DNA from: Nitrospiraceae bacterium
GTDB lineage: Bacteria > Nitrospirota > Thermodesulfovibrionia > UBA6902
NCBI GenBank assembly: GCA_020356065.1
Contig: CP070632.1
Coordinates: forward strand, 265,284 to 329,283
Direction of reading: 5' to 3'
Length of the DNA: 64,000 nt
Each line of letters starts with the position of its first letter. Position 1 is the first letter of the stretch. Shown piece after piece: positions 4,574-51,220 of the stretch. Position numbers and translations under genes: made by a program. Below the pieces are notes generated by a model. The model was not told where the DNA came from. It made no database searches and saw only the letters and a program-made list of their open reading frames with translations.

Positions 4574-6097
4574 TTAAATATCTTTCATTAATGCGACTCT
4601 CTTATAAAAGCCGCACTTTCTGCAGTCTCCAATTTTTTGTGCTACAGCTCCGCTCACCTTTTTACCACAAAAAGTACCTGCAACAGCCCAGCACATGCGT
4701 CCGAAGTGAGGATAAGCAGGACACCTCATATTAACCGCACCTTCGGCTTTTTCAACGCCGCACCTGGTAAATTCCCAGCATTTGGTTTTTGACCCGTTCT
4801 CGCCGCTCTGATGAGGAAAGCACATTTTAAATGTTGTGCCGTGGCCAGGCTCACTGTCAACAAAAATCAATCCGTTATGCTCATCCATTATTTTCTTGCA
4901 TATTGACAGACCGAGCCCGGTACCTACACCTATCTCTTTCGTTGTATAAAAAGGTTCAAACATCATTTTTGTCGCATCAGCAGTCAGCCCCGATCCCGTG
5001 TCCTTCACCTCGACAACAATGTATTCAGCATAATACATCTCTTCCCTGTATGTTTTGATAGTGAGACTCCCCCCTTCCGGCATTACATCGATTGCATTTG
5101 AAATCAGGTTATTAACAGCCTGTCGAACATGATCTCTGTCAATGAGAATGTCAGGAAGAGGTTCTGAGAGATCGGTTATAATCGTAATGGACTGCTCATC
5201 ACACAACGTTCTGAAAGTACTGACAACATCATCGACAGAATCGTTTATCTGATGATTTTCCAAGTCAAACTTTGCTTCTCTCGAAAACATAAGGACATCT
5301 CTCAGGATGCGCTCCAGCCTGTCAACCTCAGACATCACAATCTCAGCGTATTCTTTCTCCCTTGTACCAGCGACTAATTTATTATTCAGCCTTCTTGCAA
5401 ATCCCCCTATTGATGTAAGAGGATTCCGGATTTCATGGGCCACATCCGCGGTCAGCCTTCCCAGGGCAGACAGTTTCTCTCCCTGTATAAGTTTCCCCTG
5501 CATACTCTGAAGTTCATCAATGTATCTTTCCAGTTCCTTATTAAGGTCCTCGATCTTGTCCTTATCACTTTTCAGTTTTTGTGAAAGCATTCCTAATGGA
5601 ATCGCAAGCAGGAACAGGAACGCAATCCTTACGAAAAAATCCGCCCAGTGAAGATTACCAAATTCACACCCACAGCTGATAAAGTAAAGAACAGACGCAA
5701 CCGCAGCTATAATCGTGCCGGGTATAAGCCCGAAATAAAACGAATAGAGCGCAGTCATCAAATAAAATCCATTAAAAAAAGAACTCTCGAATCCGCCAGT
5801 TACCCTGACAAGCAATGTTGTATACACAAGATCAAAAACGAGAGCCATCCCGTAAATACTCTTTTTCTTTTCAGGAGAGATAAAAAGCCATGCATAAATA
5901 GCGATACAATAGAACAGGAAATAAATATATATACTTCGTACGCTTCGAAAAGTATCCGGGGAGATATCAGCGAGGACCAGCCAGGATATGCCCCCAATAA
6001 AAATAACTACGCGCAGATAAATAAAAGCGCGGTCAGCTATCTCAATTCTGGGCTTGGTCTTTTCCCACAGCTTATTCAGTCTTTGACAGAGATTCAT
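4574..6097 (-). CDS. Orphan membrane sensor histidine kinase with a C-terminal Cys-rich 'two Cys-Trp' sensor domain.
   Basis: 507 aa. N-terminal polytopic membrane region, coiled coil, HisKA H-box ADVAHEIRNPLTSI and HATPase_c (G-boxes DTGSGL, GTGLGLSI). C-terminal 70 aa reads CWEFTRCG...CP...CWAVAGTFCG...CRKCGF. No response regulator is adjacent. Confidence 0.8.
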   Translation of the reverse strand: MNLCQRLNKLWEKTKPRIEIADRAFIYLRVVIFIGGISWLVLADISPDTFRSVRSIYIYFLFYCIAIYAWLFISPEKKKSIYGMALVFDLVYTTLLVRVTGGFESSFFNGFYLMTALYSFYFGLIPGTIIAAVASVLYFISCGCEFGNLHWADFFVRIAFLFLLAIPLGMLSQKLKSDKDKIEDLNKELERYIDELQSMQGKLIQGEKLSALGRLTADVAHEIRNPLTSIGGFARRLNNKLVAGTREKEYAEIVMSEVDRLERILRDVLMFSREAKFDLENHQINDSVDDVVSTFRTLCDEQSITIITDLSEPLPDILIDRDHVRQAVNNLISNAIDVMPEGGSLTIKTYREEMYYAEYIVVEVKDTGSGLTADATKMMFEPFYTTKEIGVGTGLGLSICKKIMDEHNGLIFVDSEPGHGTTFKMCFPHQSGENGSKTKCWEFTRCGVEKAEGAVNMRCPAYPHFGRMCWAVAGTFCGKKVSGAVAQKIGDCRKCGFYKRVALMKDI

Positions 6098-15829: not shown

Positions 15830-16528
15830 TTATTCCTTAATATACCCTTTTTCCATGAGGCTTACATACGTGCCTTCAGAAATGATAATATGGTCCAGCA
15901 CCTTGATACCCACTAACTTTCCTGTTTCAACGAGCCTCCCTGTTATATCAATATCGTCCCTGCTTGGATGTGTGTCTCCGCTTGGATGATTGTGAATAAA
16001 TAGAATTGAAGCTGCGGCCTCTTTAATGGCATACCTGAACACTTCCCGTGGATGAACAAGTGAGGATGTAAGCGTGCCTTCTGAAACCACCATTTCTATA
16101 ACAACTGAATTTTTTGTATTCAGCAATACACAGAGAAATTTTTCCTTTTTCAGCCCGAAAAAACTTGGCCTGTAATAGTCAAACACATCTCTGCTACTGG
16201 TGAATGACTTTTTTTCCTTATTACACACATCGCATTCCTGCATAAGCCTCTTTCCCAACTCAAGTGCTGCCTTGAGCTGGGAGACCTTTGCGCTTCCCAT
16301 TCCCTTAATGTCTGAAAATTCAGCTATTGCGGCGTCATCGATCTCCCTCAGGCTTTGAAAACAGGTAAGTACTTCCCTGGCAAGCTGGATAGCACTCTTT
16401 CCTTTTCCACCGATCCGCAATATGATTGCCAGAAGCTGGGCAGTAGTCAGGGAACCGGCTCCAAACTTGAGCAGCCTTTCCCGCGGCCTTTCATCTTCAG
16501 GCCACATCCTGATTGCCTTGTATTTCAT
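15830..16528 (-). CDS. radC: RadC-family (JAB/MPN) protein.
   Basis: HNHPSGDTHPSRDD JAMM motif and N-terminal HhH region, 232 aa. Confidence 0.8.
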   Translation of the reverse strand: MKYKAIRMWPEDERPRERLLKFGAGSLTTAQLLAIILRIGGKGKSAIQLAREVLTCFQSLREIDDAAIAEFSDIKGMGSAKVSQLKAALELGKRLMQECDVCNKEKKSFTSSRDVFDYYRPSFFGLKKEKFLCVLLNTKNSVVIEMVVSEGTLTSSLVHPREVFRYAIKEAAASILFIHNHPSGDTHPSRDDIDITGRLVETGKLVGIKVLDHIIISEGTYVSLMEKGYIKE

Positions 16529-17488: not shown

Positions 17489-18870
17489 CCTGTAAAAAGA
17501 AGAAGGCTTCGGTTATTCTTTTAAAACCAAGAAAACCTTAAAAGAAAGGAAGACCGAAGCCCTATGAGAAAGATACCACCAAGTGAGAAGAATCGCAAGC
17601 AGTTAGAGGAGTTATTAAGCGGGGGAATAGAGGGAGAGAATTTATTGACGGCAGTCATTGAAAAAGGGATGCAAATCATCATGCAGGAGCTGCTGGAGTC
17701 AGAGGCCACGGAATTTCTTCAGCGAGGGCATTATGAGCGGAGGGGATCTGAGGAATTTAGGGGATACCGCAATGGATACGAGCAGCGGAAGATCAGGACG
17801 GCTGAGGGGAAGGTCCCGATAGAGCTGCCGCAGATACGAGAGAGCGTGGAGCCGTTTCGGTCAAAGTTAAAGGAGTTTTTTCGTGGGAATACAGAGTGTT
17901 TGGAGAAGTTGGCGGCAGAGATGTATGCCCGAGGGCTGTCGACGAGGGACATTGAGGATGCGATGATAGAGGCCACAGGAGATATGATTCTGTCAAAGAC
18001 GAGCGTATCGAGAGTGACGGATATCTTCTGGGAGGATTTCGAGCGATTTCAGCAGAGGGACCTGTCAGGGTATAGCGTTGAGTATCTGTTTCTGGATGGG
18101 GTATATGAGAGTGTGCGGAGGTTGGCGGGGATCAAAGAGGCGATACTGGTGGCCTGGGGGATACAGCGTGATGGCAGGAAGGTGTTACTGTCGCTGCGGT
18201 TGGGAAATAAGGAGAGTTATGACAGCTGGCTGGAGATGCTGCGGGACATGGTGAAGCGGGGATTGCGGATACCGGTGAGTATCACGAGTGATGGGGCCCC
18301 GGGAGCAATCAAGGCGATAGAGGCACTCTTTCCGCGATCATTGCGGATACGGTGCTGGGTGCACCGGATGAAGAACTTTTCATTAAAGGTGCCTCCCGTG
18401 ATGTGGCCTGAGCTGAAGGCTGAATTGTATCAGATCAGGGATGCATCAAGTTATGACCAGGGCAAAAAGATGGCCGAGAGTTTTATACAGAGATACAAGA
18501 GGACATATCCGACACTGGTCAGTGCCGTCAGTGATGATCTTGAGGCCTTACTGTCACATCTGAGGTTTCCTATTCGACACAGAAAGAGTGTACGGACGAC
18601 GAATCTGATCGAGCGGAGTTTTGTGGAGGAGAGAAGAAGGACGAAGGTGATTCCGGGATTCTGGACAGAACAGAGTTGTTTAAAGCTGGTGTTCTCGATC
18701 CTGATAAGAGCATCAAAACGATGGAATCAGATAACGATGCAGGATATGGAGTTGAAGCAAATCGATTCCTTGAGAAAAGAACTGAAAATTGATATCGAGA
18801 AAAGTGCATCATTAACTTGTAAAAAGAAAAAGGCGGTGAATGCTTGATACCGAGCCTTCACTTTTACAGG
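17489..18870 (+). mobile_element. IS256-family insertion sequence, about 1.38 kb.
   Basis: Imperfect terminal inverted repeats: CCTGTAAAAAGAAGAAGGCTTCGGT (17489-17513) and ACCGAGCCTTCACTTTTACAGG (18849-18870). They bracket a single IS256-type transposase ORF. The size fits the family. Confidence 0.7.
17564..18847 (+). CDS. IS256-family (mutator-type) transposase.
   Basis: 427 aa. ...ATEFLQRGHYER..., YLFLDGVY..., ITSDGAPG...CWVHRMKN conserved DDE blocks of IS256 transposases. Confidence 0.85.
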   Translation: MRKIPPSEKNRKQLEELLSGGIEGENLLTAVIEKGMQIIMQELLESEATEFLQRGHYERRGSEEFRGYRNGYEQRKIRTAEGKVPIELPQIRESVEPFRSKLKEFFRGNTECLEKLAAEMYARGLSTRDIEDAMIEATGDMILSKTSVSRVTDIFWEDFERFQQRDLSGYSVEYLFLDGVYESVRRLAGIKEAILVAWGIQRDGRKVLLSLRLGNKESYDSWLEMLRDMVKRGLRIPVSITSDGAPGAIKAIEALFPRSLRIRCWVHRMKNFSLKVPPVMWPELKAELYQIRDASSYDQGKKMAESFIQRYKRTYPTLVSAVSDDLEALLSHLRFPIRHRKSVRTTNLIERSFVEERRRTKVIPGFWTEQSCLKLVFSILIRASKRWNQITMQDMELKQIDSLRKELKIDIEKSASLTCKKKKAVNA

Positions 18871-24958: not shown

Positions 24959-25294
24959 TAAAAAAGCCGGGCATACCGTTGGTTAAACCTTCGGCAGCTC
25001 GGCTATCTTCAACTTCGGAGACCCGCCACTTTCCGCCCCCTTCTCACGGAGGGTTTGGCTTTGTCGGGTATATATACTTTTATTTACTTCTTTAATAAAT
25101 AATTGTCAATTTAATACTATTTATGACTTATTATTAATTCTTATATAATTGTGATTAAACAGTATGACTATAAAGCACTGAATCATGGTATCAATTATTT
25201 AATAAAACAACAGTCCTTACTTTCTTCATATTTTAAAAGTTCCTTATTGAGAATACGTATCAATTCTACTTTTGAAACCAGCTTTCTCTTCATT

Positions 25295-42086: not shown

Positions 42087-42779
42087 ATGTCACACGGGAA
42101 CAAAGAAACGCATTACAGACATATATCAAAAAGCAGGCAATGGGCAAAAAATCAGCAGCTCTCTCATTCTGAACCATCAAAACCAAAACTCGAAATAGTC
42201 CTCAAATGCGATTCAGCAGGCAGTCTTGAGGCGGTTACACAAAGCATCCTGAAGATCGATCAGCCCGCAGTTGATATATCGATTATTCACGGAGAAATCG
42301 GCAATATCCATAAGTCAGACATTCTCATGGCCGACACCGGCAGTGGACTGATCATCGGCTTTCAGGTCGGAATGGAGCCCGGCTTCAGAAGTGAACTGAA
42401 GGCAGCAGGTATAGACGTTCGGCTTTATGATGTGATCTATAATCTAACGGAAGACATAAAAAACCTGGCTGAGAACATGGTCCCCCATTTTGTTGAAGAA
42501 AATATCATTGGCTCAGCCGTAGTGATAGCCCTTTTTAAAAGCGGCCGGAAAGATATAATTGCCGGATGTAAGATTACAAGCGGCTCTCTGGCACTCCACC
42601 AGCGTTACAGAATTATTTCCGCCATGGGCCCTGTTCATTCCGGGACCATAGAGTCAATGCACATTGAAGATCATACAGTGCAAAAAGCGATTAAGGGACA
42701 GGAAGTCGGTATAAAAATAAGAAATTTCAAGAATGTTAAGGTGGGTGATCTTCTGGAAACTTTCAAACCAGGAAAATAA
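42087..42779 (+). CDS. Stand-alone paralog of the translation initiation factor IF-2 C-terminal region (C1 plus C2 beta-barrel), with no G domain.
   Basis: 230 aa. LEIVLKCDSAGSLEAV...IIHGEIGNIHKSDILMADTGSGLIIGFQV...YDVIYNL.ED...IIGSAVV...AGCKITSGSL...VGDLLETF parallels the IF2 domain order block for block. Confidence 0.55.
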   Translation: MSHGNKETHYRHISKSRQWAKNQQLSHSEPSKPKLEIVLKCDSAGSLEAVTQSILKIDQPAVDISIIHGEIGNIHKSDILMADTGSGLIIGFQVGMEPGFRSELKAAGIDVRLYDVIYNLTEDIKNLAENMVPHFVEENIIGSAVVIALFKSGRKDIIAGCKITSGSLALHQRYRIISAMGPVHSGTIESMHIEDHTVQKAIKGQEVGIKIRNFKNVKVGDLLETFKPGK

Positions 42780-42827
42780 TCATATCGTCGGGGTATGTTT
42801 CAACATGCCCCGACTTCTGCAAATCCC

Positions 42828-42866
42828 TTACAAAATTGTATGAAAATTTTGTTACTTATCATACCT
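42828..42866. promoter_or_regulatory. Dyad/UAS-like motif TTACAAAATTGTA...CTTATCATAC.
   Basis: The TACA-N4-TGTA dyad recurs at 44683, 47740/47752 and 49428/49446. Here it is about 55-90 bp upstream of a sigma-54-type promoter. Confidence 0.5.
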
Positions 42867-42918
42867 TAGCGTCTCTCCTGATAAATACTGATACCTTAAA
42901 AACCAGCTGCTTATAACA

Positions 42919-42934
42919 TGGCAACGTTTTCGCT
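42919..42934 (+). promoter_or_regulatory. Sigma-54-type promoter (TGGCAA-N5-TCGCT) for the 43008 gene.
   Basis: The GG and GC dinucleotides are exactly 12 nt apart, as in the -24/-12 consensus TGGCAC-N5-TTGCW. Confidence 0.5.
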
Positions 42935-43007
42935 AAGAAGTACAGTATAATTAAACGTTCAACATGAAATTAACCTAATACGTCATTTCAATAAACTGAA
43001 ACTTCAG

Positions 43008-44501
43008 ATGAAAAAGACACATTCACATCAGGAACTTTACCATGAGATTTTCGGGTCCATCCTCGACCGGACTGAAATGAATCCATATCTTTTACTCCAC
43101 ATCAGCAATTACAGGTCGGCACTTAAACAGGCAACTAAAATGATGGGCAACAGAGGATTTGACATGTACGGAGGCGAGGAGCTTGTGGAACGGGAAAAAA
43201 AGCGGGCCGCGAAATATATTGACAATGCTTATCGATACTGCTTTGTTCATATGTTTCCTTTTTTAAAGGAACAGCTTGCCAGACTCATGGACATTAAATC
43301 AACAAAATACAGCCAATATGAGCAGTGTCTTAGGGCAATAAAGACTATAGAGAAAATATTACATGATGAGAACTTTAAGAGAATCATGGAAGCAGATCCT
43401 CGTCACCTTCTTCTTCTTGCTTCATCAAAAAAATATCCGTACGTCTTTTCTGGTTATAAAGATGAGGGATTGACTGTCCCGGCGGAATGGCAGCAAATGG
43501 CATGCGCACTTCTCAAGGTAGCATATCTCATTAAATCAATCGAGGAAGACAGCCAGGACATTAATGATTATGCCCAGCTGGGACTGTTTCTGGAACTTGA
43601 GGGGCAGAGCCTTCATGATCTGTATAACTATGACTGGGCCAACCCGGCACACGTACCTGACAGTGATGCTGCAAAAAGGGCCTTTGTGAAGATCGCAACA
43701 TTCTTTCTTAAGCTCAAGGAATCTGTCAGATCAGTTGCAAATGGGAACTTTTTTATTTTTGACAGTGGTGACGGTGTTGAGATAGATATAATGGAAATTA
43801 AGTCCAGGTTAAAAAGCCCCGCTAGTATGTCGACAAAACTAGGCAAAGACGTTGAAGGTGAAGCCCATAATATACGCGATATTCTGGCTATAACTTTTAT
43901 AATAAGAAATATTGATGATACACTAAAGCTCATTCATGCCCTTCAGAAAAGAGGAGTAATACTGCAGGAAAACACCCTTTCGTCATCTCTGACCCAGACG
44001 CTTTTCGCCAACCCGGAAAGCATGTCACGGGCAGTAAAAAACCTTATCATTAGCCTATCGAAAAGCGAAGGAATGGACCATCCAGTTACTGACAGGGACT
44101 TACAGTTCAATACGCATGCATTTTATAAAGCCCTCAGCATGAATGCTGCTAAAAACCCGTATACAGCTGCAGGACATAAAAAATTACAGTGCAAAATCAA
44201 CTTTTCCGTTCCCATTCATCGTTCTTCTGTTACAAATGAAATTATGATTCCAGGCACCGCGGCTTATAAAGAAAGGGGCTTCCGGAAGATCATGACCGAA
44301 CAGCATTCACTTGCACTGGAGCTTCGCATATCAGATGAACAGAGCTGGATGGATTCAGAATATAAGCAGGACTCTCACCATGATGCATATAAATTCCGGC
44401 AGATGGTTTCGGTCATGAACAGGGTATTCAAGAAGAACTTCCAGTTCCCGGAATCAGATTTTAATGCTTTGAGAGAAGATCAGAAGAAACTCTTTTCATA
44501 A
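43008..44501 (+). CDS. Hypothetical 497-aa cytoplasmic protein of unknown function.
   Basis: Intact ORF with no recognisable motif. Embedded in the nitrogen cluster behind a sigma-54-type promoter plus dyad motif. Confidence 0.5.
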   Translation: MKKTHSHQELYHEIFGSILDRTEMNPYLLLHISNYRSALKQATKMMGNRGFDMYGGEELVEREKKRAAKYIDNAYRYCFVHMFPFLKEQLARLMDIKSTKYSQYEQCLRAIKTIEKILHDENFKRIMEADPRHLLLLASSKKYPYVFSGYKDEGLTVPAEWQQMACALLKVAYLIKSIEEDSQDINDYAQLGLFLELEGQSLHDLYNYDWANPAHVPDSDAAKRAFVKIATFFLKLKESVRSVANGNFFIFDSGDGVEIDIMEIKSRLKSPASMSTKLGKDVEGEAHNIRDILAITFIIRNIDDTLKLIHALQKRGVILQENTLSSSLTQTLFANPESMSRAVKNLIISLSKSEGMDHPVTDRDLQFNTHAFYKALSMNAAKNPYTAAGHKKLQCKINFSVPIHRSSVTNEIMIPGTAAYKERGFRKIMTEQHSLALELRISDEQSWMDSEYKQDSHHDAYKFRQMVSVMNRVFKKNFQFPESDFNALREDQKKLFS

Positions 44502-44682
44502 TATCAGCGTATCGGGTTCCATTATCAGTTAATCCACCCCCCTGTAATAATGAGTTAACGCATGGCGCCGGAGATCGCGTCTTCTGCAGATTGGGCAGAA
44601 TATTATGGAGGTTGGACCTCCATATACGAAGGGCATGGTGCAACTTGTCCCTCCAACCTTCAGTTCACGTTCAATTTCGTAT

Positions 44683-44710
44683 TACAATTTTGTAGCTTAT
44701 CATACTTTAT
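44683..44710. promoter_or_regulatory. Dyad/UAS-like motif TTACAATTTTGTAGCTTATCATAC.
   Basis: Shares TACA-N4-TGTA and the CTTATCATAC tail with the 42828 site. Lies about 50 bp upstream of a sigma-54-type promoter. Confidence 0.5.
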
Positions 44711-44758
44711 TGTATATTAAATAACTCCTGATACATTAAATATCAATTAGTTACGAAT

Positions 44759-44774
44759 TGGCATGCTTTTCGCA
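44759..44774 (+). promoter_or_regulatory. Sigma-54-type promoter (TGGCAT-N5-TCGCA) for the HTH-porin-amt-glnK unit.
   Basis: GG/GC spacing of 12 nt. Lies 40 nt upstream of the HTH mini-ORF. Confidence 0.5.
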
Positions 44775-44815
44775 AATAATCCTCCCATGAGTTCATTGAA
44801 GGAAAAGATAAAGTT

Positions 44816-44971
44816 ATGGAAAAGGAAGAAATAATACTTGCCCTCATGGAATGTGACGGTGTCCAGGCAAGGGCCGCAAGAAAACTTGGTATTACTGAAC
44901 GCATGATCGGCTACAAGATCAGGAAATACAATATTGATTTAAGGGAGGTGGTGAAAGACAGCAAACAGTAG
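44816..44971 (+). CDS. Stand-alone Fis-type (HTH_8) mini-protein, 51 aa.
   Basis: MEKEEIILALMECDGVQARAARKLGITERMIGYKIRKYNIDL, the NtrC/Fis C-terminal HTH pattern AA..LGI.R..L..K. RBS GGAAAAG lies 9 nt upstream. Paralogous to 47879-48049. Confidence 0.5.
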   Translation: MEKEEIILALMECDGVQARAARKLGITERMIGYKIRKYNIDLREVVKDSKQ

Positions 44972-45040
44972 ACAGGAGTTAGCAGTTAGAAGTTACTAAA
45001 CAGAATAACAAACCCAATAAAAAAGGAGATAAGAAAGAAA

Positions 45041-45763
45041 ATGATGATGAAAGCAGGTTTGATACTATGTTTTATGTTTGTCCTGGTGTCGGTTTCAGCA
45101 CTCAATGCAAATGCATCAGAAACTTCGGGTGAGGCATCCATCGGCATATACAACAGTTATATGTGGAGAGGATTCGAACTGCATGAGGATGTAGCCATAC
45201 AGCCTTCAGTCGGGATTACCTATGGCGCATTTGGAGCTAACCTTTGGTCTGATTACAACGCTGATAGCAAAGAAGCTGTAGAAACGGACCTCACATTAAA
45301 CTATACCCACTCAATAGATAAGATAGGGCTTGACATTGGGTATATATATTACGGGCTGGATGGGGCAACTGATACTCAGGAGATTTACTTCGCAGTCAGT
45401 TACGACACACTGTTAAGTCCATCACTGACATTGTACTATGACTTCGATGAGGGAGACGGGGCCTTTATCGTTGCATCGGTTGGACATGATATACCAATCA
45501 ATCAAGATATAGCTGTAAGCCTCGGAGCCTCCATCAGCTATAACGCAGAAAGTAAATATGCTATTGGAGATTACAGTGCACTGCATAATGGTGAAATTTC
45601 AGTTTCTACAAGTATTCCTGTATACAAAGTGATATCGATCTCTCCCATAATTGCATACTCTTTCACATTAAGTGATGATGCCAAGGACGCGGTGCAAAGT
45701 CTCAATGCAGACGGTGACAACAACTTCTTTTACGGGGGCGCCAGCGCATCTGTAAGCTTCTAA
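45041..45763 (+). CDS. Gcw_chp-type predicted outer-membrane beta-barrel protein.
   Basis: 240 aa. Signal peptide, alternating hydrophobic beta-strand pattern and C-terminal ...SVSF aromatic terminus. About 240-aa porin-like proteins are known to accompany amt/glnK. Confidence 0.55.
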   Translation: MMMKAGLILCFMFVLVSVSALNANASETSGEASIGIYNSYMWRGFELHEDVAIQPSVGITYGAFGANLWSDYNADSKEAVETDLTLNYTHSIDKIGLDIGYIYYGLDGATDTQEIYFAVSYDTLLSPSLTLYYDFDEGDGAFIVASVGHDIPINQDIAVSLGASISYNAESKYAIGDYSALHNGEISVSTSIPVYKVISISPIIAYSFTLSDDAKDAVQSLNADGDNNFFYGGASASVSF

Positions 45764-45787
45764 CATCTATGAACAGGAGGAATAAAA

Positions 45788-47119
45788 ATGATACGATTTA
45801 CAGCAATATTAACCTTAATATTTACCCTGTCAGTACCATTTATGGTATTTGCAGAAGAGGCAGCACCTGCAGGTCCATCTCTCGGATTGACGATCAGCAA
45901 TGTCTGGATGATGGTTGCAACCTTTCTGGTGTTTATCATGCACCTTGGATTTGCTTCACTTGAGGCAGGCCTGACACGCTCTAAAAACACCGTAAACATA
46001 CTTTTTAAAAACACGCTGATACCGGCTATCGGCCTTTTGACCTATGCATGGTTCGGGTTTAACCTGATGTATCCCGGAACATTCAACGGAATACTGGGTT
46101 TCGCCGGATTCGGTCTCCCCTTCCCCACAGTTGGAGGGGCACTTGACCTTTCATATAATGAAGGCTATACCTACTGGACAGACTTTCTGTTTCAGGGGAT
46201 GTTTGCTGCAACCGCTGCTACCATAGTATCCGGTGCAGTTGCAGAGAGGATCAAGCTTAATTCCTTTCTGGTTTTTTCAGCCGTGTTTGTAGGCCTTGTC
46301 TATCCCATTCTCGGTTCCTGGAAATGGGGCGGTGGATGGCTTGACAGCATGGGATTCTATGATTTTGCTGGCTCAACCCTTGTCCACTCAGTAGGTGGCT
46401 GGGGAGCTCTCATCGGCGCCATTATGCTGGGTGCAAGAAAAGGCAAATATGTTGACGGCAAGATCAAACCCATACCAGGTCACAGTATGCCGCTTGCAAC
46501 AATCGGTGTATTCCTTCTCTGGCTGGGCTGGTTCGGATTTAACGGTGGTTCAGTATTAAGCGCTGATCCTGCACTTGTCTCACTAACGCTGGTGACAACC
46601 TGTATTGCTGCAGCAGCCGGCATAATAGGTGCCATGCTGACTACGTGGACTATATCCAAAAAACCTGATCTCTCAATGGTACTTAACGGCTGCCTTGCCG
46701 GACTGGTCGGGATAACTGCAGGTGCTGATCAGATGGGACTGGGTTCGTCATTCTGGATCGGCCTGATTGCCGGTGGTCTGGTTGTTGTGTCGGTCATGAT
46801 GATTGACAAAATGAAAGTTGATGATCCTGTCGGAGCTGTGCCTGTCCACCTTGTCTGCGGCATATGGGGCACCCTTGCAGTAGGTATATTCGGTGCAATG
46901 GCAGGCATGAAGCAGTTCGGTATTCAGCTGCTGGGAGTTGGAGTTTACGGAATTACCACAGCACTTGCAACACTGATCATCTTCTCAATGGTCAAGGCAA
47001 CAATGGGTCTGCGTGTATCAGAAGAAGAGGAAGTGGAAGGTCTTGACCTTGGTGAGCACGGCCTGGAGGCATATCCTGATCTTGCATTACAGCCTGGTGC
47101 CAAGAGCAGTGCTTTATAA
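45788..47119 (+). CDS. amt: Ammonium transporter (copy 1).
   Basis: 443 aa. Signal peptide, 11 TM, Amt signatures DFAGSTLVH, GAIMLGAR, WFGFNGGS. Confidence 0.9.
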   Translation: MIRFTAILTLIFTLSVPFMVFAEEAAPAGPSLGLTISNVWMMVATFLVFIMHLGFASLEAGLTRSKNTVNILFKNTLIPAIGLLTYAWFGFNLMYPGTFNGILGFAGFGLPFPTVGGALDLSYNEGYTYWTDFLFQGMFAATAATIVSGAVAERIKLNSFLVFSAVFVGLVYPILGSWKWGGGWLDSMGFYDFAGSTLVHSVGGWGALIGAIMLGARKGKYVDGKIKPIPGHSMPLATIGVFLLWLGWFGFNGGSVLSADPALVSLTLVTTCIAAAAGIIGAMLTTWTISKKPDLSMVLNGCLAGLVGITAGADQMGLGSSFWIGLIAGGLVVVSVMMIDKMKVDDPVGAVPVHLVCGIWGTLAVGIFGAMAGMKQFGIQLLGVGVYGITTALATLIIFSMVKATMGLRVSEEEEVEGLDLGEHGLEAYPDLALQPGAKSSAL

Positions 47120-47161
47120 ACTTAAGTCCCCGAACGAATTGGACGGGATATCTAACTAATC

Positions 47162-47273
47162 CTCCCCCTTGACGGGGGAGGTCGGAATCGACTCGTACCG
47201 AGAATAAGGTGGGGGGTGAATGATTGATTTGCCCCCCTCACCCTCACCCTCTCCCGATTGGGGAGAGGGGATA
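47162..47273 (+). other. Two GC-rich hairpins in the amt1-glnK1 spacer.
   Basis: CCTCCCCC-ttgac-GGGGGAGG and CCCTCTCCC-gattg-GGGAGAGGG plus a (CCCTCA)2 tract. Neither is followed by a U-tract. Confidence 0.45.
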
Positions 47274-47276
47274 TAA

Positions 47277-47630
<354 letters not shown>

Positions 47631-47737
47631 TCACAGGAGAGTAATGCACACCGTTAACCTTGTATCCATGCTGGACCCCTGCGGCTTAGTAAGGGTCCAG
47701 CATGAATCTTGATACATTGATTAAAAAACAGATCGCA

Positions 47738-47785
47738 ATACAAAAATGTATTACATTTATGTAGCACAAAGCAACATAAATGTAA
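47738..47785. promoter_or_regulatory. Cluster of TACA-N4/5-TGTA-type dyads (ATACAAAAATGTAT, TTACATTTATGTAG, ACATAAATGTAA).
   Basis: Same dyad family as 42828, 44683 and 49428. Lies 45-90 bp upstream of the sigma-54-type promoter at 47829. Confidence 0.45.
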
Positions 47786-47828
47786 TTCTTTCAAGCTTCA
47801 TCTTCATAACTTTCATAATTTTATAAGC

Positions 47829-47844
47829 TGGCACGGTTTTAGCG
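47829..47844 (+). promoter_or_regulatory. Sigma-54-type promoter (TGGCAC-N5-TAGCG) for the HTH-amt2 unit.
   Basis: TGGCACGGTTTTAGCG, with GG/GC spacing of 12 nt. Confidence 0.5.
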
Positions 47845-47878
47845 TTGTCTTTGTATAAATAAGATGGTTTCATTGAAA

Positions 47879-48049
47879 ATGAGAGTAGAGACATACGAAA
47901 AAGACATCATCACAAAAACGCTCAAAGAATGTAATCATGTAAAGGCGCAGGCCGCCAAGAAACTGGGCATTACCGAAAGAATGATCGGTTACAAAATAAA
48001 AAAAAACATTAAAGTCCTGAAAGGAGATATTGAAAGTAATGATTATTAA
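47879..48049 (+). CDS. Stand-alone Fis-type HTH mini-protein, copy 2 (start MRVETYEK; the called ORF starts at 47864).
   Basis: ...LKECNHVKAQAAKKLGITERMIGYKIKKNIKVL, about 60% identical to the 44816 mini-protein over the HTH. Its stop overlaps the amt2 start. Confidence 0.5.
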   Translation: MRVETYEKDIITKTLKECNHVKAQAAKKLGITERMIGYKIKKNIKVLKGDIESNDY

Positions 48050-49364
48050 AAAAATTTTTACAGCATTCATGTTATTGGTCCTGGGGCTGCCGCTTAAAGC
48101 GCTCGCGGAGGAGACAGCATCAATAAACAGCGGTGATACCGCCTGGATGATAGTGGCAACCGCACTGGTCCTGTTCATGACCATACCGGGACTGTCACTT
48201 TTTTATGGCGGCCTCGTGAGATCAAAGAATGTACTCTCTATCTTTGTCCAGTGTTTTGCCATTACTTGCCTTATGTCAGTTTTATGGGTCATATATGGTT
48301 ATAGCGTAGCGTTTGACGGAACAGGCATGGAGGCGGGAGCATTTAATTTCCACTCGCTCTTTGGAGGACTGAACAAAATGTTCCTGTCCGAAGTTGGAGT
48401 TGACAGTGTATCAGGAACAATCCCCGAGACAGTATTTCTTATTTTCCAGATGACCTTTGCAATCATTACCCCTGCATTAATGGTAGGGGCTTTTGCTGAA
48501 AGGATGAAGTTCAGCGCAGTCATGCTTTTTGTAACAATATGGTTTACGTTTTCTTATCTTCCCATATGCCATATGGCATGGGGTGGTGACGGGGCACTGT
48601 TTGCCAATTGGGGTGTACTTGATTTTGCAGGAGGTACCGTTGTCCATGTGAATGCTGGTATTGCTGCTCTTGTGGCCTGTCTCATGGTAGGCAAGCGAAA
48701 AGGGTTCGGTGAAGTAGCAATGCTTCCGCATAATGTCCCATTCGTCATCATCGGAACAGGCATGCTCTGGGTCGGATGGTTTGGGTTTAATGCCGGAAGT
48801 GAGCTGGCAGCTGACGGTACTGCCGGTATGGCCATGCTTGTCACCCAGATTGCAACAGCAACTGCGGCACTCAGCTGGATGTTTGTTGAGTGGATCCGTT
48901 CAGGAAAACCGACCGCTGTCGGTATTGCGACGGGCGCTGTTGCAGGGCTGGTAGCTATTACCCCTGCCTCAGGAACAGCCGGCCCCATGGGAGCTTTGCT
49001 GATCGGAGCAACATCGGGAACACTCTGTTATTTTGCTGCCACATCCATGAAGAGGGCACTAGGATATGATGACAGCCTGGATGTTTTCGGTGTTCACGGC
49101 GTGGGTGGCATGATTGGTGCAACGTTAACCGGTCTGTGTGCAGCAGAATTTATGGGAGGTGCTGGAATCGAAGCAGCAAGCATTGGTGCACAGATATGGG
49201 CACAGATCAAGAGCATTATTGTAACGCTCGTATGGAGCGGTATTGTAGCACTCATTGCTCTTAAGGTTATCGATGCTGTAATAGGTATCAGGGCTGAAGA
49301 CAGTAACGAGGTTCAAGGGCTGGACATCAGTGACCATGAGGAAGCAGGGTATAATATTTCGTAA
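48030..49364 (+). CDS. amt: Ammonium transporter (copy 2). The start is either 48030 or 48039.
   Basis: 444 aa. Signal peptide and Amt signatures DFAGGTVVH, WFGFNAGS. Confidence 0.9.
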   Translation: MKVMIIKKIFTAFMLLVLGLPLKALAEETASINSGDTAWMIVATALVLFMTIPGLSLFYGGLVRSKNVLSIFVQCFAITCLMSVLWVIYGYSVAFDGTGMEAGAFNFHSLFGGLNKMFLSEVGVDSVSGTIPETVFLIFQMTFAIITPALMVGAFAERMKFSAVMLFVTIWFTFSYLPICHMAWGGDGALFANWGVLDFAGGTVVHVNAGIAALVACLMVGKRKGFGEVAMLPHNVPFVIIGTGMLWVGWFGFNAGSELAADGTAGMAMLVTQIATATAALSWMFVEWIRSGKPTAVGIATGAVAGLVAITPASGTAGPMGALLIGATSGTLCYFAATSMKRALGYDDSLDVFGVHGVGGMIGATLTGLCAAEFMGGAGIEAASIGAQIWAQIKSIIVTLVWSGIVALIALKVIDAVIGIRAEDSNEVQGLDISDHEEAGYNIS

Positions 49365-49425
49365 CAGAGGCTTTTGAAATTATATTTGAATGTATACGTT
49401 TTTATTGTTCTTTGACAACTTAATA

Positions 49426-49463
49426 TCCCTACAAAATTGTAGGGATTACAATTTTGTAGGGAT
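49426..49463. promoter_or_regulatory. Tandem dyads ATCCCTACAAAATTGTAGGGAT and TTACAATTTTGTAGGGAT upstream of glnK2.
   Basis: A 22-bp near-perfect palindrome immediately followed by a second copy. TACA-N4-TGTA core. A weak sigma-54-like TGGTAC-N5-TTGAT lies 40 bp downstream. Confidence 0.5.
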
Positions 49464-49559
49464 AAGTGTGCCCTTACACCATGTAAATTAAAGGTTTTTA
49501 TGTGGTACGCTTCTTGATGTCTCACTCCCGTATGAAAATTAAACACCGGGAGGAAAGCA

Positions 49560-49898
49560 ATGAAAATGGTTGCAGCTGTCATCAAGCACTTTAAGCTGGA
49601 TGATCTAAGAAAGGCCCTGACAGAGATAGATGTCCAGGGGATGACCGCTATCGAGGTCAAGGGATTTGGAAGACAGAAGGGACACATGGAAGTATACCGC
49701 GGCGTAGAGTACGAAGTGCAGTTTCTGCCAAAGATCAAGATCGAGGTAGCAGTCTCAGAGGAAAAGCTCGATGATGTGCTGAAGGTGATCATGGAAAGTG
49801 CAAAAACAGGAGAGATAGGTGACGGCAAAATTTTCGTATACAGTCTGCAGGAAGTCATCAGAATCAGAACCGGGGAAAGAGGTGAGGGAGCACTATGA
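49560..49898 (+). CDS. glnK: PII nitrogen regulatory protein (copy 2).
   Basis: 112 aa, with the same T-loop and B-loop signatures. Its stop overlaps the amt3 start (ATGA). Confidence 0.9.
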   Translation: MKMVAAVIKHFKLDDLRKALTEIDVQGMTAIEVKGFGRQKGHMEVYRGVEYEVQFLPKIKIEVAVSEEKLDDVLKVIMESAKTGEIGDGKIFVYSLQEVIRIRTGERGEGAL

Positions 49899-51220
49899 TA
49901 AAAAATTACACATTACAGATTGGAAATTTCAAATTTTTCATTCTCACATTGTGCATGCTGGCCAATTCAAGCCCTGCATTTGCTTCTGAAACTGCGACTC
50001 TGGACTCAGGTGATACAGCTTGGATACTTGTTGCAACAGCGCTTGTGCTGTTTATGACCCTTCCCGGTCTGGCACTGTTTTACGGTGGATTGGTAAGAAC
50101 AAAAAACGTTCTTTCTGTATTGCTGCAATGTTTTGCCATATCCGGTATAGTGACCATACTCTGGCTTGCCGGAGGATACAGCATCGCGTTTTCAGAGGGA
50201 ACTGCTTTTGCCGGCGGACTGTCAAAGGCCTTCTTTGCAGGGATGCTTGAAGATACCCTGAGCGGGACCATTCCTGAATCACTGTTTGCGCTGTTTCAGA
50301 TGACATTTGCCATTATCACACCAGCCCTTATTATAGGCGGCTTTGCCGAGAGAATGAAGTTTTCATCTATTCTGCTCTTCTCATCACTATGGCTGATCGT
50401 GGTATACTGCCCGATTACCCACTGGGTTTGGGGAGGCGGCTGGCTGCAGGAAATGGGCCTTCTCGATTTTGCCGGTGGTACGGTCGTGCATATCACGGCC
50501 GGGGTAGCTTCACTGGTAGCAGCACTTGTACTGGGCCAGCGAGACGGGTTTCCGCACACATCGATGCCCCCGCATAACATGACCATGACTGTCAAAGGCG
50601 CTGGCATGCTATGGGTCGGCTGGTTCGGTTTTAACGGCGGAAGCGCACTCGCAGCAAATGGTGATGCTGCCATGGCAATGCTTGTTACGCATATATCTGC
50701 AGCTGCAGGCGCCATGACATGGATGTTTTATGAGTGGAAAAAATTCGGTAAACCTACCGCCCTTGGCACAGTAACCGGTATGGTAGCAGGACTCGGCACC
50801 ATTACTCCAGCGTCTGGATTCGTAGGACCGGCTGGAGCACTTATAATTGGTGTTACAGCAGGAATTATCTGTTTCAATGCAGTATTATTTATGAAGTCAG
50901 TGCTTAAAGTTGACGATTCTCTCGACGTATTTCCAGTACACGGAGTGGGAGGGATAACAGGCACATTGCTGGCAGGCATCTTTGCATCAACCGGCCTCGG
51001 CATATTCAGTGGACAGGGATTTGCAAGCGGTATCAACAGTGTGTCTGAGCAGCTCTATGTACAGTCCATAGGAATTGCTGCCACAGTCGGATACACGGCA
51101 ATTGCTACGTTTGTAATTCTTAAGGCCGTCAACGCAGTCACAGCCCTGCGGGTATGCAAGGAATGCGAGGTTGAAGGGCTTGACGTTTATGGCCATGGTG
51201 AGCAAGGATATATTCTCTGA
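49895..51220 (+). CDS. amt: Ammonium transporter (copy 3).
   Basis: 441 aa. Signal peptide and Amt signatures DFAGGTVVH, WFGFNGGS. Confidence 0.9.
   Translation: MIKNYTLQIGNFKFFILTLCMLANSSPAFASETATLDSGDTAWILVATALVLFMTLPGLALFYGGLVRTKNVLSVLLQCFAISGIVTILWLAGGYSIAFSEGTAFAGGLSKAFFAGMLEDTLSGTIPESLFALFQMTFAIITPALIIGGFAERMKFSSILLFSSLWLIVVYCPITHWVWGGGWLQEMGLLDFAGGTVVHITAGVASLVAALVLGQRDGFPHTSMPPHNMTMTVKGAGMLWVGWFGFNGGSALAANGDAAMAMLVTHISAAAGAMTWMFYEWKKFGKPTALGTVTGMVAGLGTITPASGFVGPAGALIIGVTAGIICFNAVLFMKSVLKVDDSLDVFPVHGVGGITGTLLAGIFASTGLGIFSGQGFASGINSVSEQLYVQSIGIAATVGYTAIATFVILKAVNAVTALRVCKECEVEGLDVYGHGEQGYIL

Follow-up and report, generated by a model that had tools for sequence, protein, structure and literature searches.

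Dyad sites upstream of sigma-54-type promoters in a nitrogen gene cluster of Thermodesulfovibrionia and their conservation in related loci

Genes and dyad sites of the nitrogen cluster

The window analysed here, a stretch of 64,000 nucleotides (64 kb) from a Nitrospiraceae bacterium of the class Thermodesulfovibrionia (contig CP070632.1), contains a cluster of nitrogen genes in which a short dyad, TACA-W4-TGTA, recurs in intergenic regions upstream of sigma-54-type promoters. The order of the encoded proteins is IF-2-C-like protein, 497-aa (amino acid) protein, 51-aa HTH_8 protein, 240-aa protein, AmtB, PII, 61-aa HTH_8 protein, AmtB, PII and AmtB; the third AmtB is followed by a class-I glutamine amidotransferase, GlnA, two small open reading frames (ORFs) and GlnE. 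For comparison, 79 related loci (L001-L079) were obtained by scanning species-representative genomes with an alignment of the small HTH_8 proteins, which are designated here as mini-HTH proteins (HTH, helix-turn-helix).

The genes that carry the dyads are likely transcribed as four units, all on the forward strand. Unit 1 would consist of the gene encoding the 497-aa protein of a TIGR04562/TIGR04552-like family (43008..44501, +); it is preceded by a GC-rich hairpin after the IF-2-C-like gene (42787..42814, +), which is conserved in L001 and likely acts as a terminator. Unit 2 would comprise the genes of mini-HTH 1 (44816..44971, +), a 51-aa stand-alone HTH_8 protein corresponding to a NifA-type DNA-binding domain only, the porin-like 240-aa putative outer-membrane barrel (45041..45763, +), the ammonium transporter AmtB-1 (45788..47119, +) and the PII protein GlnK-1 (47292..47630, +), with a likely terminator hairpin, read from the sequence, after the last gene (47668..47704, +). 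Unit 3 would contain the genes of mini-HTH 2, a 61-aa stand-alone HTH_8 protein (47864..48049, +), and AmtB-2 (48039..49364, +), for which the ATG at 48039, read by eye, is the likely start, while the ORF list gives a TTG at 48030. The genes of the PII protein GlnK-2 (49560..49898, +) and AmtB-3 (49895..51220, +) would form unit 4, which possibly extends further downstream.

The initial annotation had described seven copies of the dyad in four intergenic regions, and their number, placement and positions were confirmed. The sequence TACAWWWWTGTA has six exact matches in the window (at 42829, 44683, 47739, 47752, 49430 and 49447), with 0.09 expected from shuffled sequences, none of which reached six. 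The relaxed core ACAWWWWTGT is found seven times versus 2.2 times expected, the additional copy being AACATAAATGTA at 47774. All seven relaxed matches fall into the intergenic regions 42780-43007, 44502-44815, 47631-47863 and 49365-49559, which together measure 970 bp and for which 0.056 copies are expected from base composition. The remaining intergenic DNA of the window, about 10.2 kb, contains none; within the window, the dyad is thus not equally frequent elsewhere. A position weight matrix (PWM) trained solely on other genomes, with the consensus ccTACAwwwwTGTAgg, ranked exactly these seven dyads first in the window, with scores of 13.2-21.0 bits and 9.9 bits for the next-best position. 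Since A+T make up about 64% of the intergenic DNA, in which short W-rich palindromes occur frequently, the dyads might be chance AT-rich palindromes or incidental intergenic repeats. The clustering described above argues strongly against this explanation, as do the distance to the promoter, which is fixed across the 79 loci, and the conservation of the sites while their flanks diverge, so that chance can practically be discarded.

None of the motifs of well-known nitrogen regulators occurs in the four regions, namely the NifA motif (TGT-N10-ACA), NtrC-type motifs (TGCACC-N5-GGTGCA; GCAC...GTGC) and the TnrA/GlnR motifs. The dyad is therefore indeed unlike the textbook NtrC or NifA site, as had been noted before. 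A single NtcA-type GTA-N8-TAC in the P2 region (promoters P1 to P4 are described below) is a by-product of two adjoining dyads and was rejected as a candidate.

Promoter geometry and conservation in related loci

Three elements with the -24/-12 signature of sigma-54 promoters had been proposed at 42919, 44759 and 47829, and these coordinates hold. P1 (TGGCAACGTTTTCGCT, 42919..42934, +) serves the gene of the 497-aa protein and has the counterpart TGGCATGTTATTGGCA in L001; P2 (TGGCATGCTTTTCGCA, 44759..44774, +) is kept in L001; P3 (TGGCACGGTTTTAGCG, 47829..47844, +) is a match to the pattern. The canonical element, TGGCAC-N5-TTGCW, has GG and GC separated by exactly 10 nt. All three fit TGGCAN-N6-THGCD, for which five matches were found in the whole window versus 1.1 expected. 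The remaining two, at 16416 and 52943, are antisense within coding regions and lack dyads, and they amount to about the number expected by chance. According to the initial annotation only three of the four loci had such a promoter; this has to be revised, as the fourth region also contains a conserved sigma-54-like element, P4 (TGGTACGCTTCTTGAT, 49503..49518, +), with GA for GC at -12. In L001, L019 and L043 it is conserved as TGGYAC-N5-TTGAT, with unchanged spacing to the dyads. Neither sigma-70-like promoters nor intrinsic terminators are enriched in the region.

In each of the four regions, the -24/-12 element lies 56-90 bp downstream of the dyads, with distances measured from the start of the dyad to the -24 TGG. 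The distal site of P1, TACAAAATTGTA (42829..42840; PWM score 17.9 bits), is located 90 bp and the distal site of P2, TACAATTTTGTA (44683..44694; 19.9 bits), 76 bp upstream. Three dyads precede P3, two of them exact matches (TACAAAAATGTA, 47739..47750, 90 bp; TACATTTATGTA, 47752..47763, 77 bp) and one a relaxed match (AACATAAATGTA, 47773..47784, 56 bp; 13.2 bits). P4 is preceded by TACAAAATTGTA at 49430..49441 (73 bp; 21.0 bits), which forms part of the 22-bp palindrome TCCCTACAAAATTGTAGGGA at 49428, and by the exact match TACAATTTTGTA at 49447..49458 (56 bp). The near-perfect palindrome was already part of the initial annotation, as was a tail shared by the first two dyads; both are real features of the sequence. 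The tail, CTTATCATAC, occurs at 42855-42864 and 44696-44705, i.e. 64 and 63 bp from the respective -24 TGG, and it is made up of a spacer followed by TAC, the left half of a degenerate dyad nearer to the promoter, e.g. TACTTTATTGTA at 44703. Scoring with the PWM indicated that degenerate sites occupy distances which would otherwise be empty: TACTTTATTGTA (44703..44714; 8.1 bits) lies 56 bp upstream of P2 and GAAAATTTTGTT (42842..42853), whose score of 4.2 bits is weak evidence, 77 bp upstream of P1.

The same arrangement was found in the related loci, most of which have the common gene order mini-HTH, porin-like gene (in many of them), amtB and PII. Within the 79 loci, the density of exact dyads in the 400-bp stretches preceding mini-HTH genes is 20 times that of the remaining DNA, and 75 of 86 mini-HTH genes have at least one relaxed dyad upstream, commonly two which are 18 or 13 bp apart. 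The dyads of the window regions are conserved while the flanking sequences diverge; those of the fourth region are kept in L001 and L019. Among 99 GG-N10-GC sites with an upstream dyad, collected from the 79 loci and the window, the distances peak at 56-58, 67-69, 75-77 (the peak on which the degenerate site GAAAATTTTGTT falls) and 86-90 bp, and the consensus of these sites is TGGCAYG-N-TTTT-N-GCW. Inverted repeats, as a rule at least two, at a conserved distance of about 70-150 bp in front of the promoter, here 56-90 bp from the -24 TGG, are the geometry of upstream activating sequences (UAS) of bacterial enhancer-binding proteins (bEBPs). The architecture of an enhancer-binding-protein regulon, which had been proposed from the window, is thus borne out by the conservation of dyad, promoter and spacing in 79 other loci of Thermodesulfovibrionia.

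A dyad located 50-100 bp upstream of a sigma-54-like promoter was taken as the mark of a regulon unit in the related loci. The first genes of such units belong to mini-HTH operons in 75 of 117 cases, followed by amtB (11), PII (5) and glnA (1). Further units begin with nifB-like radical-SAM genes (about 10), nifH and genes of an nrfH-like cytochrome, a modA-like binding protein and a small membrane protein, all of these labels being assigned by eye from N-terminal sequences. This gene content points to a general nitrogen regulon. Separately, divergent PII-like gene pairs were observed about 2-6 kb upstream of the mini-HTH gene in L015, L018, L024, L026, L030, L062 and L073. These proteins show 29-42% identity to GlnK of the window and are taken to be nifI1/nifI2-like, which would put the mini-HTH operon beside nif clusters in several genomes.

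Mini-HTH proteins and the candidate activator

Both mini-HTH genes are the first genes after their promoters, those at 44759 and 47829. The encoded proteins reach 42.6 and 42.8 bits with Pfam HTH_8 (cut-off 22; E=5e-11) and possess no AAA+ module. With NCBIfam, the best match was obtained for the final 43 positions of NifA, and the best PDB profile matches are the NtrC-family DNA-binding domain 2m8g (E=4e-13) and NifA 9qq6 (E=1e-9). Database searches yielded 793 relatives, with lengths of 48-87 aa among the best 120; mini-HTH 1 is identical to the product of locus tag JSW20_01440, and the close relatives all originate from Thermodesulfovibrionia or other Nitrospirota. The 38-codon core is under strong purifying selection, as indicated by a median ratio of non-synonymous to synonymous substitution rates (dN/dS) of 0.075 and, for the window versus L001, by a dN of 0.011 and a dS of 0.32. 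An AlphaFold model of mini-HTH 2 shows a long N-terminal helix followed by the helix-turn-helix with moderate confidence (predicted local distance difference test, pLDDT, 66); a Foldseek search with this model was uninformative.

In most loci, the start codon of the mini-HTH gene is located 13-31 nt past the GC of the -12 element (e.g. 47844-47866 in the window), which implies that the mRNA leader is very short or absent, an unusual situation for the first cistron of an operon. The stop codon of the mini-HTH 2 gene (48047-48049) overlaps with the probable ATG of amtB2 at 48039, which suggests translational coupling. In mini-HTH 1, the conserved N-terminus of the family (MSSLKEKIK...) is encoded out of frame with the HTH at 44787-44815, and the A-run near 44810 lacks one base compared with that of the near-identical metagenome protein P0004. 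As the same sequence is present in three independent Logan assemblies of public runs (L080-L082), the frame difference looks like a real strain variant with a 51-aa product starting at the internal ATG 44816.

The initial annotation stated that no bEBP gene lies in the window. This is correct insofar as no AAA+ activator was found there by Pfam analysis of large ORFs or by tblastn with a full-length activator, which matched only the two mini-HTH genes; the latter, though, are two genes for activator-type DNA-binding domains. The rpoN gene lies outside the window as well. Full-length proteins with such a domain are encoded in relatives: L041, L051 and L052 carry, directly upstream of the mini-HTH gene, a gene for a GAF-AAA+-HTH_8 protein of 507-510 aa. 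The L051 protein scores 592.6 bits with the NifA model TIGR01817 (cut-off 528.85). This NifA-type activator, named NifA by NCBI, is at least 79% identical across at least 120 protein clusters of the class. Since it is near-universal in Thermodesulfovibrionia, it is presumably also encoded by the source genome of the window. In the isolate Dissulfurispira thermophila, the NifA-type gene (AP022873.1) is not located beside nitrogen genes, and its absence from this window is therefore unremarkable.

A link between this activator and the dyad is suggested by the one-component activator DVU1949 of Desulfovibrionales, whose predicted regulon includes amtB-glnB-glnD, two glnA genes, gltBD-type operons and others (Kazakov et al. 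2015, BMC Genomics 16:919, PMC4641369). From Additional file 4 of that paper, 101 predicted DVU1949 sites were transcribed, e.g. GTTACATTTTTGTAAT and ATTACAAAATTGTAAT; they yield the consensus TTTACAATATTGTAAA and share the TACA-W4-TGTA core. Judged from this sequence comparison the motif is not new, its core being equal to the published predicted DVU1949 motif. A PWM derived from the DVU1949 sites assigned 10.7-12.7 bits to the window dyads, compared with a training range of 7.3-17.9 bits and a median of 12.6. In both systems, a TTACA-W4-TGTAA core precedes sigma-54 promoters of amtB-glnB, glnA and other nitrogen genes. When only the 42-aa DNA-binding domain of DVU1949 was compared, alongside those of the other D. 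vulgaris activators (36 domains, Additional file 2, PMC4641369), it was the closest one to the C-terminal domain of the Thermodesulfovibrionia activator (…GGIQAKAARLLGITPRQIGYKIKKY), with scores of 115 versus 94 for the next-best domain for L051 and 106 versus 87 for L052; mini-HTH 1 gave 85 versus 73. The recognition helix of the mini-HTH proteins, LGITERMIGYKI, is invariant across the family and differs from that of the activator, LGITPRQIGYKI, in two residues (E instead of P, M instead of Q); its unusual GY pair is also present in DVU1949. The two systems differ in their hosts, Nitrospirota here and Desulfobacterota there, in the local motif, which is stricter and has C/G-rich outer flanks (ccTACAwwwwTGTAgg) compared with TTTACA...TGTAAA, and in the tightly fixed site-promoter distances and stand-alone DNA-binding-domain genes found here. 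The regulon is thus of a kind already predicted in Desulfovibrionales and occurs in Nitrospirota with a very regular geometry.

Taken together, we consider it probable that the dyads are the UAS of a sigma-54 regulon for nitrogen control, which is activated by a NifA-family GAF-AAA+-HTH_8 protein encoded outside the window and perhaps subject to feedback by the mini-HTH proteins. From sequence and context we infer the binding protein, the nitrogen signal and the feedback role. The likely binder would be an activator of the NifA family which recognises ACA-N6-TGT and regulates nitrogen genes in general. As a dimer, it would bind to between one and three dyads, with centres about 75-110 bp in front of the start site, contact sigma-54 RNA polymerase at TGGCAY-N5-TNGC promoters and, under shortage of fixed nitrogen, use ATP hydrolysis to open these promoters. 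Judged from other NifA proteins, the GAF domain probably senses 2-oxoglutarate or the PII status. The mini-HTH proteins, which cannot activate as they lack the AAA+ module, might sit on these dyads themselves or dimerise with the activator's DNA-binding domain and thereby exert feedback on the ammonium-uptake operons.

Several observations weigh against this interpretation. On the promoter side, P4 lacks the near-invariant GC at -12 and is promoter-like but non-canonical, and P1 carries an unusual TGGCAA. On the side of the motif, the Desulfovibrionales PWM is degenerate in the AT-rich window, where unrelated positions match as well, so that it does not by itself single out the window dyads; moreover, the DVU1949 motif is itself a computational prediction (PMC4641369). 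The domain of mini-HTH 2 is not closest to DVU1949, and the two differences in the recognition helix might cause the mini-HTH proteins to prefer other DNA than the activator. A search for the source genome's own activator was unsuccessful: the best 120 protein matches are all NifA-type proteins of the class, and none was labelled as coming from this genome. Finally, a NifA-type protein is proposed at sites which are not the canonical TGT-N10-ACA, so that the assignment of protein to site relies on the similarity of DNA-binding domains and on context.

Two other explanations were considered. The dyads could be operators of the mini-HTH proteins alone, which would serve as auto-repressors or Fis-like architectural proteins, with the activator binding elsewhere or acting from solution. 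The predominance of mini-HTH genes at the head of dyad-promoter units would fit this view, as would the fact that the recognition helix of the family is as invariant as the dyad core. However, the same geometry exists in front of nifB, nifH, amtB, PII and glnA where no mini-HTH gene is present, the same core was predicted for DVU1949 in Desulfovibrionales, and the recognition helix of the activator is near-identical. Furthermore, sigma-54 promoters require an activator, and the dyads are the sole conserved element at the usual UAS distance. We therefore regard mini-HTH proteins as sole users of the dyads as improbable. To the same extent doubtful is the binding of another activator, e.g. an NtrC-type two-component response regulator, which would render the similarity to NifA coincidental. 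Such a protein might be favoured by the missing sight of the source genome's own activator, the lack of a canonical NifA UAS, the D. vulgaris response regulator DVU3220, which also targets the amtB operon, and a histidine kinase gene located in the window at 4574-6097. On the other hand, of the 36 D. vulgaris domains, that of the motif-linked DVU1949 came closest to the NifA-type protein, the NifA-type gene adjoins the dyad-controlled operon in L041, L051 and L052, the mini-HTH proteins of the regulon copy the NifA-type domain, and the NtrC-type GCAC...GTGC site is absent.

The proposed NifA-family activator resembles known nitrogen regulators only in part. With NifA (TIGR01817) the activator of the related genomes shares the GAF-AAA+-HTH_8 organisation, a score above the equivalog cut-off and a TPRQxxY recognition helix, and dyads are found at nifB and nifH in relatives; the site, in contrast, is ACA-N6-TGT and not TGT-N10-ACA. 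As nif genes are only one part of a regulon devoted mainly to the uptake and assimilation of ammonium, the protein would be more like a global nitrogen regulator, a role which in Proteobacteria is fulfilled by NtrC. There, the NtrC-activated glnK-amtB and glnA promoters are built on the same principle, with tandem dyads upstream of a sigma-54 promoter and with amtB and PII genes expressed under nitrogen limitation. The NtrC site TGCACC-N5-GGTGCA is absent here, however, and the likely activator is a one-component protein with a GAF domain instead of a phosphorylated receiver-domain protein. GnfM of Geobacter is a sigma-54 activator that binds to at least two upstream sites, located around -90 to -130, and its targets are nif, glnB, glnK and amtB genes (Ueki and Lovley 2010, PMC2995071). 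The likeness concerns layout and targets; GnfM is a two-component response regulator.

The mini-HTH proteins may be a class of enhancer-site decoys that has not been described before, i.e. split-off NifA DNA-binding domains encoded by the first cistron, with hardly any leader, of operons which the full-length activator turns on. With rising amounts they would displace the activator from the dyads, share the dyads with it or inactivate its dimers and so render transporter expression self-limiting; we put this forward tentatively and would give it somewhat less than even chances. An alternative is that they act as DNA-bending helpers. The decoy model invites comparison with Fis, which, as Morett and Bork are said to have proposed in 1998, is a stand-alone HTH_8 protein derived from the C-terminal domain of NtrC. 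Like Fis, the mini-HTH proteins are small HTH_8 proteins without AAA+ module. With 51-61 aa, in contrast to 98 aa for Fis, those of the window would leave no room for the N-terminal arm of Fis, and searches of PDB and NCBIfam led to NtrC-family and NifA domains as best matches and not to Fis. Their genes lie inside the regulon of the parent activator, their closest relatives are C-termini of NifA proteins from the same lineage, and nothing indicates a global nucleoid role. If the decoy model is true, a small DNA-binding protein would have originated from a sigma-54 activator in a Fis-like manner but independently.

For Thermodesulfovibrionia, a class of Nitrospirota which is widespread, comprises sulfate-reducing and magnetotactic bacteria and is for the most part uncultured, the results provide a concrete map of how nitrogen would be controlled. 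It consists of a single dyad and a single type of promoter in a fixed arrangement, together with a probable master regulator of the NifA type. Targets on this map are amtB, glnK, glnA, nif and nrf genes. A literature search yielded no description of nitrogen control in this class, including Thermodesulfovibrio. The motif, so far predicted only in Desulfovibrio, is now found in a second phylum, which supports that prediction. Moreover, a protein with a NifA annotation could apparently recognise sites other than TGT-N10-ACA and regulate nitrogen genes in general. The novel part of the finding is the conserved protein family which consists solely of a NifA DNA-binding domain and heads amtB operons; a literature search on stand-alone activator DNA-binding domains gave nothing relevant. 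If the mini-HTH proteins act on the same sites, they would constitute a simple built-in feedback device, of which none is described for sigma-54 systems in the literature searched.

The 497-aa protein and further features of the window

The protein encoded by unit 1 belongs to a family of about 497 aa that is conserved in Thermodesulfovibrionia (675 matches) and related to TIGR04562/TIGR04552, with scores below both cut-offs. A look-up of the exact sequence returned no record. In a structural model (pLDDT 79.7), the top Foldseek matches were the small alarmone synthetases RelP and RelQ, with weak E values of 0.07-0.4, and Pfam RelA_SpoT aligned with residues 266-316 below threshold. The residues invariant in the family are R267-x-K269…S273…K277, D291, E438-x-R440-I441 and H458-x-x-Y461, and K462 is nearly invariant; these agree with what we take to be the RelA/SpoT synthetase motifs. 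The modelled similarity to alarmone synthetases is a lead and not an assignment.

The initial annotation also counted this protein among the members of the regulon. This stands for the present genome and for its closest relative, L001, where the dyad and promoter are present in degenerate form, while the orthologues in L006, L025 and L043 have neither. The limitation of dyad and promoter to the window and L001 indicates that the protein joined the regulon recently and in a lineage-specific manner. If the lead is true, an alarmone-type enzyme would be under nitrogen control in this strain, a case paralleled by the NtrC-activated relA of E. coli.

The 240-aa protein of unit 2 has no Pfam match; it ends in Phe, and its hydrophobic N-terminus was judged by eye to be a signal peptide. 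In many loci its gene is conserved at this position, between mini-HTH and amtB. A dedicated outer-membrane channel for the uptake of ammonium is a possible function. In the same unit, three strong GC-rich hairpins (47160-47275) were observed in the AT-rich spacer between amtB1 and glnK1, with a minimum free energy of -72.7 kcal/mol (z = -3.6). The nitrogen cluster, including these hairpins, showed no match to an Rfam family; RNA processing, RNA stability or a repetitive extragenic palindromic (REP)-like element are possible explanations.

The IF-2-C-like protein in front of unit 1 is a stand-alone protein of 230 aa (42087-42779) that consists solely of IF-2 C-terminal and EF-Tu domain-2/4-like domains, and it is 82% identical to its counterpart adjoining the cluster in L001. 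Outside the cluster, the window contains an insertion sequence with a Mutator-family transposase gene (Pfam Transposase_mut) at 17564-18847. In addition, a c-di-GMP-I-GGC riboswitch aptamer (Rfam RF03167) was identified on the minus strand at 24989-25068, with 67.9 bits compared with a gathering score of 59.

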